From a bacterium (GTDB taxonomy: Bacteria > UBA8248), in the NCBI GenBank assembly GCA_965219955.1, contig OZ244799.1, positions 3,904,001 to 3,968,000 on the forward strand: DNA of 64,000 nt, given 5' to 3'. The first letter of the stretch is position 1, and each line of letters opens with the position of its first letter. Position numbers and translations under genes: made by a program. This document shows positions 46,936-56,436 of this stretch, piece after piece. Below the pieces are notes generated by a model, which had not been told where the DNA came from, did not search any database, and saw only the letters and a program-made list of their open reading frames with translations.

Positions 46936-47028
46936 GGAGAGGTGTCCGAGAGGCCGAAGGAGTACGACTGGAAATCGTATAGGTGCCCACAAGGTGCCTC
47001 GAGGGTTCGAATCCCTCCCTCTCCGCCA
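46936..47028 (+). tRNA. tRNA-Ser(GGA)
   Basis: GGAGAGG/CCTCTCC acceptor stem, anticodon arm TACGA-CTGGAAA-TCGTA, long variable arm, GGTTCGAATCC, encoded CCA. Confidence 0.96.
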
Positions 47029-51901: not shown

Positions 51902-52034
51902 CCTGCGATGGAGTCGACCGGCCAGGCGCCCTCGTGGCACCCGGGAGTGTCCACTTACCGCTGCTTCCTTCCGGACCTGACGGGGTTCGCGGGCTCCCGC
52001 CGCACGAGACCCAACCGGCCGAATCCATCGCAGG
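51902..52034 (-). ncRNA. ffs: Signal recognition particle RNA (ends approximate)
   Basis: GTCAGGTCCGGAAGGAAGCAGC helix-8 motif in a long hairpin; usual position upstream of dnaX. Confidence 0.95.
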
Positions 52035-52727: not shown

Positions 52728-53588
52728 ATGTCGTATTCCAAAGTCGTCGAACTCGCGGAGGGAAAGGTTTACGCCCTCCACAACACGTTCCCGCTGGACG
52801 GGCGCATCAGCGCATACCCCATCAGCGCGCGCGGGCACAGCGTCTCGAACTGCTATCTGCTGAAAGAAGACGAGGGCGCGCTCCTGCTCGATACGGGCTA
52901 TGTCGTTCACGAATCCGAAATCCTGTCGCAGATGGAATCCCTCATCGAGCCCGATACGCCCCTGCACCTGCTTCCCCTGCGCATCAACGAGTTCATGTCG
53001 GTGGGCAACGCCATGGCGATCGCCAAACGCTTCAACGTGGTGGAGTGCCTCGCCCCGGTGCCGGAGATCAACGAGTGGCTCGAGTTCGAAGCGCTCGAAC
53101 CCGGCGGAAGCAACGGCAACCCCGTCCTTCCCACCACGATACTGAAGCCGCTTCATCCCATCGAAATCGGCGATAGATACATCGAGGTGATGAACGCGCC
53201 GATCCGCCTCATCAGCACCCGCTGGATTTACGATGCGGCCACGCGCACCCTGTTCACCTCGGACATGTTCAGCCACCTTTGGGCGGAGGGGGCGGAAGGC
53301 CCCTGGCTGCTGGATGAAGACGGGGTGACGACGACTTCCTTCGTTCGCTCGTTCCTGCTGAACACGCGCTACTGGTGGCTCGAGGGCGCGAGGACGGATT
53401 CCATCCGCAAAGGAATCACGGAAGTCTTCGAGCGCTACGAGATCGAGACCATCGCTCCGGGCTATGGCGCGGTGCTGCGCGGACGCCATCTGGTGGAGCG
53501 GCAATTTGCCGTGCTAGATGAGGTTCTGGCGGGTCTCGACCGGGGCGTCGTCAAGCCGAACTACGTCGCGCTCGGTTTAGAGAGATAA
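52728..53588 (+). CDS. Metallo-beta-lactamase-fold protein (FprA/ODP-like), metal ligands degenerate
   Basis: NCYLL, LLLDTG, LFTSDMF, IAPGYG; HxExDH replaced by RINEFMS. Confidence 0.7.
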   Translation: MSYSKVVELAEGKVYALHNTFPLDGRISAYPISARGHSVSNCYLLKEDEGALLLDTGYVVHESEILSQMESLIEPDTPLHLLPLRINEFMSVGNAMAIAKRFNVVECLAPVPEINEWLEFEALEPGGSNGNPVLPTTILKPLHPIEIGDRYIEVMNAPIRLISTRWIYDAATRTLFTSDMFSHLWAEGAEGPWLLDEDGVTTTSFVRSFLLNTRYWWLEGARTDSIRKGITEVFERYEIETIAPGYGAVLRGRHLVERQFAVLDEVLAGLDRGVVKPNYVALGLER

Positions 53589-53594
53589 CAGCGC

Positions 53595-54356
53595 ATGAGC
53601 CATCCCCTGCCTCGAGAAGTCTCGCCCGGCGTCTTCTGGCTCGGCGACTGCCTCGTGCAGCACTCGCAGGGCAAAATCTATCACTCCTACAACGCGGCCT
53701 TCCTCGTCATCGGCTCAGAAGCCTCCATGCTGATAGAAACGGGACACCCCAAGGATTTCCCCATCATCGAGCGCCAGATGAAGGACATTCTGTCCCGCGG
53801 CGGAGGGCCGCTCAAGCACCTGTTCCTGACCCATCAGGAGACCCCCCACTCGGGAGGTCTGGGCCGCGTGCTCGACAGGTACCCCGACCTCACCATCCAC
53901 GGAGACATGTGCGACTACCATCTCGCGTTTCCCCAGCACGAAGGCCGCTTCAAGGAGATGCGGGTGGGAGACGCCATCGACCTGGGCGATACGAAGTTCA
54001 TGGCCGTGGAGCCGGTGATCCGGGACTTGAGGAGTTCGCTCTGGGGGTTCGAGACCAAAGGGCGCGTGCTGTTTCCCGGAGACGGCTTCGCCTACAGCCA
54101 CTACCATACGGACGGTCATTGCGGGATGTTCGCCGAAGAGGCCACGTCTCTCGATCTGGTCGACGTGCTGGGCGTATTCGCCGAGCGCGCCCTGTACTGG
54201 ACCACCTTCACCGACATGAACGTCTACGCCGACAAGCTCGAAGAGTTGATGGATGAACTAGACGTCGAAATCGTCGCGCCGACGCACGGCCTGCCGATAC
54301 GGGACATCGCGCAAACGATGCCGAAAGTCCGGGAGGGCCTTGTCCGGGGCGACTGA
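53595..54356 (+). CDS. Metallo-beta-lactamase-fold protein (FprA/ODP-like, no flavodoxin domain)
   Basis: YNAAFLV, THQETPH, FPGDGF, APTHG. Confidence 0.78.
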   Translation: MSHPLPREVSPGVFWLGDCLVQHSQGKIYHSYNAAFLVIGSEASMLIETGHPKDFPIIERQMKDILSRGGGPLKHLFLTHQETPHSGGLGRVLDRYPDLTIHGDMCDYHLAFPQHEGRFKEMRVGDAIDLGDTKFMAVEPVIRDLRSSLWGFETKGRVLFPGDGFAYSHYHTDGHCGMFAEEATSLDLVDVLGVFAERALYWTTFTDMNVYADKLEELMDELDVEIVAPTHGLPIRDIAQTMPKVREGLVRGD

Positions 54357-55186: not shown

Positions 55187-55381
55187 ATCCGTATTTCCTC
55201 CTTGTCAGGCGCGGCGAGGGATAATATCCGCCCCGCCGCATCGTTGTTTCGAAGATGTTTAGCAGGCTTGGGGGGATTCCACAATCGAACCTGCCCGGGA
55301 AACTATACTCGGCGCGGCGTTTGTCGTATCCTGCGCGCATCAACGAAATTATGCGAACCACACATTCATGAGGAGATATCC

Positions 55382-55942
55382 ATGACAGGTCCTGTTGATG
55401 GACACAGCACCTCCACCGTGCCGGGCGAGCGCGTCATCGACAAGCCCGAACTCCCCAAAGGGGGGCTGTATACCGACAACACCGTCCACACCGAGATGCA
55501 CGAGGGCTCCCTGCAGCTCAAGCGCGGCACGGCGGGAGATTTCGAGATTTTCTGCGACGAGGGCGCGCACATCGGCGGCACGGCGCAATACCCCACGCCG
55601 ATGGCCTATCTCGCCATGGCGACGGGGTTCTGACTGCTCACCCAGGTGTCGCGGTACGCGCACATGATGAAAATGGATATCAAGGGGGCGAGCGTTTCGG
55701 TGCGGTTCCGGAAACTGCTGGGCGGCTCGGTGCTCAAGGGCACCGTGTTCAACAAGTGGGAGGCCGTGGACACGCATCTCAAAGTCGAATCGGACGAGCC
55801 CGCGGACAGACTAGCCCACCTCATCAAGAACGCCAAGAACGGCTGCTTCGCCGAAGCCCTGATCACCGAGCCGGTGCCGCTCCACTCCACCGTGGAGGTG
55901 AACGGCGAACCCTTCGAGATAGAGGGCGTGACGGCGGATTAA
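55382..55942 (+). CDS. OsmC-like protein, predicted selenoprotein (Sec at codon 84, TGA 55631-55633), 186 aa
   Basis: DEG...GG...PTP...ATGF-TGA-LLTQ continues in frame to AKNGCF; GAGGAG RBS; hairpin 12 nt after the TGA. Confidence 0.82.
55646..55663 (+). promoter_or_regulatory. Putative bacterial SECIS element
   Basis: GTG(T)CGC-GGTAC-GCGCAC hairpin with bulged U and G-led loop. Confidence 0.65.
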
Positions 55943-55964
55943 CCCCCATACCTGGAGTTTTTAC

Positions 55965-56414
55965 ATGGAATACTTCCACGCATCTGAAGACATCGCCTTC
56001 GGCTCGCAGCCCGAGCCTGCGGATCTGGAATCCCTCGCCGCAAGAGGCGTCAGGACCATCATCAACACGCGCTTTCCCGAGGAAGACCAGGGCGATCTGC
56101 CGCCCGAGCGCGCAAAGGCGGAGGCCGAGGCACTGGGGATGCGCTACGTGAACGTCCCCGTCTCGCCCGCCGAGTTCAGCCCCGCCTCGCTGGCCGAGGT
56201 GAGCCGCGCTCTCTCTGAAGCCAGGGCCCACGGCCCGACGTTCGTCCACTGAAAAGCCACGGGGCGGGCCGGGATTTGCTCGCTGAACCATCTGGCTGAT
56301 GAGAACGAGTGGACGGCGCGGGAGATGGAGGGAGCCGCCGACGCCACCGGATTCGACTGGCGCGCCGCGCCGCTCGCGCCCAAGTACCGCGAGTTCTTCG
56401 CAAGGAGACCCTGA
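55965..56414 (+). CDS. DUF442/PTP-like sulfurtransferase, predicted selenoprotein (Sec at codon 96, TGA 56250-56252), 149 aa
   Basis: GSQP, GVRTIINTR..EE, ALGMRYVNVPV, PTFVH-TGA-KATGRA matching H-C-x4-R; frame stays open 53 more codons. Confidence 0.8.
56264..56283 (+). promoter_or_regulatory. Putative bacterial SECIS element
   Basis: GCGGGC-CGGGATTT-GCTCGC hairpin starting 11 nt after the TGA. Confidence 0.6.
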
Positions 56415-56436
56415 GCAGGCGCAACGGGGGCGCCGC

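Follow-up and report, generated by a model that had tools for sequence, protein, structure and literature searches.

Does the TGA at positions 56250–56252 of the 64,000-nucleotide stretch of UBA8248 DNA analysed here (the window, part of contig OZ244799.1) end a short protein, or does it encode selenocysteine (Sec) in a longer one? In translation table 11, the ORF at 55965..56252 (+ strand) specifies 95 residues with the C-terminal sequence AHGPTFVH, and the TGA follows directly. When this TGA, which is codon 96 and the sole in-frame TGA of the ORF, is read as U, the sequence continues as H95-U96-K-A-T-G-R101, with 53 further codons between the TGA and a stop TGA at 56412–56414, and the product is 149 residues long. 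A first-pass annotation of this DNA had noted that the predicted protein stops at PTFVH and that readthrough gives H-U-KATG-R and a plausible full domain of 149 residues. Both observations stand: the 95-residue ORF ends in GPTFVH with the TGA next, and the match of the longer product to the Pfam family PF04273 spans the TGA. The elements of the gene, called Sec-DUF442 below, are as follows.

55954..55957, + strand: ribosome-binding site GGAG, read directly, 7 nt ahead of the ATG
55965..56414, + strand: Sec-DUF442 gene, 149 codons plus a TGA stop at 56412–56414
56250..56252, + strand: UGA, codon 96 (predicted Sec), at the catalytic Cys position of H-C-x4-R by alignment with Cys homologues
56250..56267, + strand: codons of the active-site loop U96-K-A-T-G-R101 (C-x4-R anion-binding loop), by alignment and structure model
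56264..56283, + strand: SECIS-like hairpin, with 5′ arm 56264–69 GCGGGC, 8-nt loop 56270–77 CGGGAUUU and 3′ arm 56278–83 GCUCGC
56277..56279, + strand: Cys105 codon UGC, the last two bases of which begin the hairpin 3′ arm

The readthrough protein matches PF04273 (BLH_phosphatase/DUF442) over residues 7–102, across the TGA, with 48.1 bits against a cut-off of 26.1. Its match to the NCBIfam Blh model NF040641 covers residues 6–135 and profile positions 3–130 of 423 only (53.9 bits, cut-off 625). Since this match runs to residue 135, the part behind the TGA is homologous to DUF442 C-termini; the first-pass annotation had made its proposal depend on this point, and here profile matches and alignment agree. 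The protein is not a member of the Blh family (NF040641), being 149 residues long and lacking the fused ETHE1-type dioxygenase domain. Because its match to NCBIfam TIGR01244 (residues 7–104) scores 47.9 bits, under the cut-off of 85.85, the protein is, as far as profiles can tell, a divergent DUF442 subfamily.

In the alignment, U96 falls on the catalytic Cys of the Cys homologues, and C96, R101 and G103 are invariant. The H-C-x4-R motif, which had been put forward as typical of DUF442/Blh domains, is present in most Cys relatives in the form H-C-x4-R-[AVS]-[GA] (best 150 of 1619 matches). The KATG loop had been described as divergent. It does not lie outside the range of the family, in which the x4 segment is variable among Cys homologues. 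The C-x4-R loop is one residue shorter than the C-x5-R loop of the phosphatase-like proteins P0057–P0060, and the Sec-DUF442 protein lacks the C-x5-R P-loop that defines classical Cys phosphatases (PTP/DSP). One family member (L045/L068) has a Tyr in place of the otherwise invariant His ahead of Sec (Y-U-K-G-A-G-R).

The AlphaFold2 model, calculated from a 23-row alignment, has a pLDDT of 94.9 and a pTM of 0.90. It forms a single domain, uninterrupted at the TGA position, with a strand (residues 92–96) leading via the loop into a helix (residues 100–114), i.e. the PTP-like α/β fold of DUF442 proteins with a C-x4-R loop between strand and helix. The top Foldseek matches are the DUF442 structures 3gxh and 2f46 (TM 0.70–0.77, probability 1.00), followed by TpbA and dual-specificity phosphatases, and a profile search of PDB sequences agrees with this ranking of the DUF442 structures. 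Within the helix, Cys105 and Ser106 are invariant in the Sec clade. Cys105 is also present in the Cys homologue P0034, and residue 105 is hydrophobic in the other Cys homologues (best 150 of 1619 matches). Cys105 may be a resolving Cys, or merely the product of the hairpin 3′ arm at a buried position.

The TGA is conserved far beyond this genome. In 21 of 21 orthologous loci of other assemblies the internal stop at codon 96 is TGA, never TAA or TAG, and the final stops of the same 21 orthologues vary (TAG, TAA or TGA). A search with the readthrough protein in 51 genomes of the phylum gave a match in 37 of them. All 56 near-full-length matches (query residues 1–5 to 145–149) carry the TGA, 55 of them with one and one with two; the remaining four matches, which are weaker or partial, comprise three without a stop and one with TAA. 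Most genomes of the genus contain two copies of Sec-DUF442. In the genome of the window, the second copy (C1:2051740–2052183, − strand, equivalent to L040:2983–3444) is 39% identical and has the same TGA and hairpin; these two genes are its only PF04273 members. Paralogues retain the TGA at 35–46% identity. The TGA, rather than being unique to one assembly, is thus common to dozens of independent assemblies and to paralogues down to 35–39% identity. The first-pass annotation had suggested a search for such TGA-containing homologues. In the paralogue L052 (G024:C5:285649–286089, − strand), a second TGA takes the place of the otherwise invariant Trp132 and the hairpin 3′ arm contains a mismatch (GCUCGU); this gene may be a decaying copy or contain a sequencing error.

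The two sides of the TGA evolve at similar rates. The median dN/dS is 0.167 ahead of the TGA (210 pairs) and 0.187 behind it (207 pairs, after three pairs with dS ≤ 0.05 were dropped). The region behind the TGA, for which the first-pass annotation had suggested such a comparison, is by this measure under purifying selection.

Eleven nucleotides (56253–56263) separate the UGA from the 5′ arm of the hairpin, and the 6-bp stem hairpin that had been seen starting 11 nt behind the UGA is thereby located at 56264–56283. An extra G-U pair is possible at 56263/56284, for a stem of 6–7 bp. The bSECIS model, as given in the Fig. 2 legend of a 2026 review, has a loop of 3–9 nt, a stem of 4–16 bp, a G in loop positions 1–2, a UGA-to-loop distance of 16–37 nt and an MFE of ≤ −7.5 kcal/mol. 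The hairpin falls within these limits, with an 8-nt loop, a 6–7 bp stem, a G at loop position 2 that is followed by another G, a UGA-to-loop distance of 17 nt and an MFE of −11.3 kcal/mol. This folding energy is not unusual compared to shuffled sequence (z = +0.32), and no compensatory double changes were found when covariation was sought across 30 distinct hairpin sequences. For these two reasons, the hairpin is supported by its conservation and sequence invariance, not by its stability. A long-range MFE structure obtained by folding 71 nt behind the UGA (z = −0.36) was dropped in favour of the local hairpin, which is conserved.

The invariance of the hairpin is pronounced. The element GCGRGC-CGGGNUNU-GCUCGC (20–21 nt) is found at a constant distance behind the UGA in 40 of 40 Sec genes, and all six stem pairs form in each of the 30 distinct sequences, five of them being invariant and one switching between G-U and A-U. 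Codons 100–107 (G-R-A-G-I-C-S-L) display no synonymous variation in 21 orthologues except CGG/CGA, a change that keeps the hairpin pair (G-U to A-U), and other invariant residues of the gene use 2–4 codons in the same orthologues. The hairpin nucleotides persist in paralogues with only 35–50% protein identity, and in metagenome contigs the paralogue sequences align to the window over 56243–56284 only, that is, over the TGA and hairpin. Part of this invariance could have its source in the protein constraint on G-R-A-G.

The genome encodes the complete machinery for Sec insertion. It contains tRNA-Sec (75.9 bits, cut-off 47), SelB (390 bits), SelA (578 bits) and SelD (332.7 bits), all above their cut-offs. 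Its SelD gene (G000:C1:2942487–2943449, − strand) has one in-frame TGA itself and is the Sec form of selenophosphate synthetase. With the TGA conserved, U96 on the catalytic Cys and a full set of Sec genes in the genome, the earlier suggestion of a Sec version of the DUF442 fold is well founded.

The exact TGA-N11-hairpin pattern has 52 matches in 185,579 species genomes (one genome per species). All 52 lie in in-frame DUF442 ORFs and all encode distinct proteins; the final stop is TGA in 10 of them. The MAGs that bear the pattern are all labelled Nitrospinota, Nitrospinae, Tectomicrobia or ‘bacterium’. One of these, the MAG of L068 (L045), belongs to the same family as the genome of the window and is assigned to GTDB UBA8248 in its BSepDB entry, which lists 54 selenoprotein genes.

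In P0034 and most Cys homologues examined, a Cys is aligned to the UGA (H-C-x4-R, same column). P0034 is 51% identical and makes a natural Sec/Cys pair with the Sec form. In a quick maximum-likelihood tree of 128 rows (54 Sec forms, P0034 and 73 Cys homologues), where branch support is SH-aLRT only, the 54 Sec forms and P0034 make up one clade (SH-aLRT 99) against the 73 Cys homologues. The tree needs two state changes, of which the well-supported branches force just one. It is consistent with a single Cys-to-Sec event, P0034 being either a sister or a reversion. The Sec form would thus have arisen once, or nearly so, in the UBA8248/‘Nitrospinota’ lineage and then have been duplicated. A scan for the locus of P0136, a 94-residue truncated relative with 41% identity, gave distant relatives only: three cyanobacterial Cys forms and a fourth (Chthoniobacterales) that contains neither H-C-x4-R nor an in-frame TGA in the frame read.

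The UGA at codon 96 almost certainly encodes Sec at the catalytic site of a small enzyme of the DUF442 sulfurtransferase family, judging from the conservation patterns described above. With a similarly high degree of confidence, the locus appears to be a real, conserved selenoprotein gene, the Sec variant of this family. That the TGA is instead an ordinary stop, and the gene product a 95-residue truncated protein or the gene a pseudogene or one half of a split gene, is scarcely credible. The public gene calls examined do all end at residue 95 (exactly 95 aa in 50 of 58 database matches), and the hairpin energy is not above chance. The 53 downstream codons are conserved with a dN/dS of 0.187, however, and the internal stop, in contrast to the variable final stops, is TGA in every case; the modelled domain passes through the TGA as a single unit, from the strand to the helix, at a pLDDT of 94.9, and paralogues at 35–46% identity keep the codon. 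Equally far-fetched is readthrough of the UGA that inserts no Sec, by a reassigned code or by near-cognate insertion of Trp or Cys. Nothing specific favours it, and it is at odds with the use of TGA as a terminator (10 of 52 family members, and the Sec-DUF442 gene of the window itself), with the complete Sec machinery, and with the position of the UGA at the catalytic Cys and ahead of an invariant SECIS-like hairpin.

What, then, does the enzyme do? DUF442 domains of Blh and of SQR from Cupriavidus pinatubonensis are reported to be sulfurtransferases with an active-site Cys (Cys94 in the SQR-fused domain), and the activities described include thiosulfate:cyanide, thiosulfate:GSH and GSSH:sulfite sulfur transfer (PMC5823870, PMC9163753). 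The closest multidomain Cys relatives of the Sec-DUF442 protein (38–40% identity, best 150 of 1619 matches) are P0065, which consists of an MBL (persulfide-dioxygenase-like) domain, two rhodanese domains and DUF442, and P0063, with two rhodanese domains and DUF442. Because the Blh and SQR domains are sulfurtransferases and Cys relatives are fused to rhodaneses, the protein is most likely a Sec-based persulfide/thiosulfate sulfurtransferase. Sulfur transfer as its biochemical role is taken from homology, and the odds on this part are about even.

From the recoding signature, family, fold and Sec position observed here we infer the insertion event, the substrate and the acceptor as follows. SelB carrying Sec-tRNA(Sec) would bind the hairpin at 56264–56283, 11 nt behind the UGA, and Sec would be inserted at codon 96. 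The product would be a cytoplasmic enzyme with 149 residues and one domain, belonging to the DUF442 branch of the protein-tyrosine-phosphatase fold. Sec96 would be situated where a β-strand ends and the five-residue anion-binding loop U-K-A-T-G-R begins, with the helix following this loop. The loop and Arg101 would hold a persulfide, polysulfide or thiosulfate, the sulfane sulfur of which would be attacked by the selenolate, and the enzyme Se-S(H) intermediate formed in this way would pass the sulfur on to sulfite or a thiol. We give a probability of about 0.85 to this reading as a whole, i.e. Sec insertion via SelB and the hairpin into a Sec-dependent persulfide/thiosulfate sulfurtransferase of near-single origin.

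The surroundings of the gene contain a second selenoprotein gene. The other features of the window that are referred to here are listed below.

55382..55942, + strand: OsmC-like selenoprotein gene with a TGA at 55631–55633 and the motif U-L-L-T (NF041052, 165 bits, cut-off 95)
52728–54356, + strand: genes for a 286-residue protein without a family and then a 253-residue stand-alone MBL-fold protein, syntenic with both selenoprotein genes throughout the genus
51917–52016, − strand: bacterial small SRP RNA (74.4 bits), ordinary
46936–47028, + strand: tRNA-Ser(GGA), ordinary

The OsmC-like gene lies directly upstream in the same orientation, with 22 nt between its stop (TAA, 55940–55942) and the Sec-DUF442 ATG. 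This adjacency is found in 20 of 22 loci and only within the genus, where a conserved block comprises the 286-residue protein without a family, a flavodiiron-like MBL protein, a methylmalonyl-CoA epimerase-like gene and both selenoprotein genes. The 253-residue MBL protein is weakly similar to the diiron domain of flavorubredoxin/flavodiiron NO/O2 reductases, with a score of 44 bits that falls far below the cut-off. Behind its UGA the OsmC-like gene carries an fdhF-like hairpin, in which a U is bulged and the loop is GGUAC. Several contigs from metagenomes and RNA libraries match this gene only near the TGA and hairpin (window 55613–55672 and 55414–55457) and then diverge, which suggests OsmC-like Sec paralogues with a common SECIS. 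An Rfam scan of the whole window gave no SECIS match, which says little; its matches were the SRP RNA and a tRNA only.

In other genera, and around the paralogue, the neighbours of Sec-DUF442 are Transglut_core2 and IlvD. The paralogue at C1:2051740–2052183 sits between a Transglut_core2 gene and ilvD, an arrangement seen again in other genera, where it is often preceded by genes for squalene/phytoene synthase and amine oxidase. Neither a persulfide dioxygenase nor an SQR gene adjoins any Sec-DUF442 copy examined, so that sulfide oxidation finds no support in the genomic context. Gene context was set aside as a guide to function, as the adjacency to OsmC is limited to the genus and Transglut_core2/IlvD suggest no chemistry. 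An RNA-library contig (run X18, 2115 nt) spans 55352–56429, including both genes, at ~96% identity, and neither TGA is touched among its differences listed. The contig may be due to DNA carry-over and is no proof of a transcript.

The Sec could also be real and the enzyme not a sulfurtransferase, a doubtful but serious alternative. The protein would then be a redox or oxyanion-handling enzyme, e.g. a reductase in which Sec96 attacks and Cys105 resolves via Se-S, or a phosphatase; the attack might be on an oxyanion or a peroxide-derived species, with the OsmC-like selenoperoxidase as a partner. The distribution of Cys105, invariant in the Sec clade and P0034 and replaced by hydrophobic residues in other Cys homologues, speaks for such chemistry, but this Cys may be only what the 3′ arm (xGC-UCG-C) encodes at a buried helix position. 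The OsmC-like Sec gene 22 nt upstream and the flavodiiron-like protein nearby point in the same direction, but this neighbourhood is confined to one genus, and elsewhere, as at the paralogue, Transglut_core2/IlvD take its place. The fold is common to Cys phosphatases and the TIGR01244 cut-off is not reached, yet the loop has the C-x4-R form of DUF442 sulfurtransferases and not the C-x5-R of phosphatases. More speculative still, and rather improbable, is the idea that the protein is the first natural Sec enzyme of the PTP fold, a selenium carrier or reductase that forms Se-S(Cys105) and makes up, together with the OsmC-like selenoperoxidase, a two-selenoprotein module for peroxide/persulfide detoxification in sponge- and sediment-associated UBA8248, with a SECIS built from the invariant G-R-A-G codons.

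The sulfurtransferase reading places the protein closest to the N-terminal domain of Blh (Xylella/Agrobacterium) and to the SQR-fused DUF442 domain of Cupriavidus, with which it shares the Pfam family, H-C-x4-R, the fold and a nucleophile at about residue 94–96. Unlike them, it has Sec for Cys, is a stand-alone protein of 149 residues with no dioxygenase or SQR fused or adjoining, falls under the TIGR01244 and NF040641 cut-offs, and has an extra invariant Cys105. Its best structural and sequence-profile matches, 2f46 (Neisseria meningitidis NMA1982) and 3gxh/3gxg (Shewanella putrefaciens), are Cys proteins of ~19% identity that were deposited as putative phosphatases, with no function in the entry titles. 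Rhodanese-like selenoproteins (forms 1–5, PF00581 and others), listed as computationally predicted in Table 1 of the 2026 review, also carry Sec as the catalytic residue in an anion-binding loop of the sulfurtransferase type, but their fold is that of rhodanese and not PTP/DUF442, and no sequence relation was found here. OsmC-like selenoproteins (NF041052, UxxT), to which the adjoining gene belongs, occur in the same lineage and use the same Sec machinery, but have an unrelated fold and peroxidase chemistry and are already catalogued.

The first-pass annotation suspected a new or barely described selenoprotein family, and the sources consulted agree with this. Table 1 of the May 2026 review contains 119 prokaryotic selenoprotein families, among them OsmC-like (PF02566, UxxT) and five rhodanese forms, and that table has no entry for PF04273, TIGR01244, DUF442 or a phosphatase fold. 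Term searches in the deep-Sep, BSepDB and GOS papers (main text) turned up no DUF442 selenoprotein, and the full-text literature outside subscription papers yielded nothing relevant on selenocysteine in DUF442/PF04273/TIGR01244 or on UBA8248 selenoproteins. None of the selenoprotein-specific NCBIfam models matches Sec-DUF442 (only Blh and TIGR01244 do), and the OsmC-like neighbour, serving as a positive control, matches its selenoprotein model NF041052 with 165 bits. As far as checked, Sec-DUF442 is a selenoprotein type missing from current catalogues.

With Sec-DUF442, the selenoproteins gain a family that has escaped both the current catalogues and the annotation models. As the gene calls examined end at residue 95, the enzyme is invisible in databases and the selenoproteome counts of its selenium-rich lineage are too low; the exact 35-nt signature of TGA and hairpin is a ready probe for correcting the annotation. 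The codons of the catalytic loop supply part of the hairpin, which provides a clean case of a SECIS evolving inside a conserved active-site motif. With Sec in a phosphatase-fold C-x4-R site, the Sec/Cys pair formed with P0034 allows one to ask what selenium buys in sulfur transfer.
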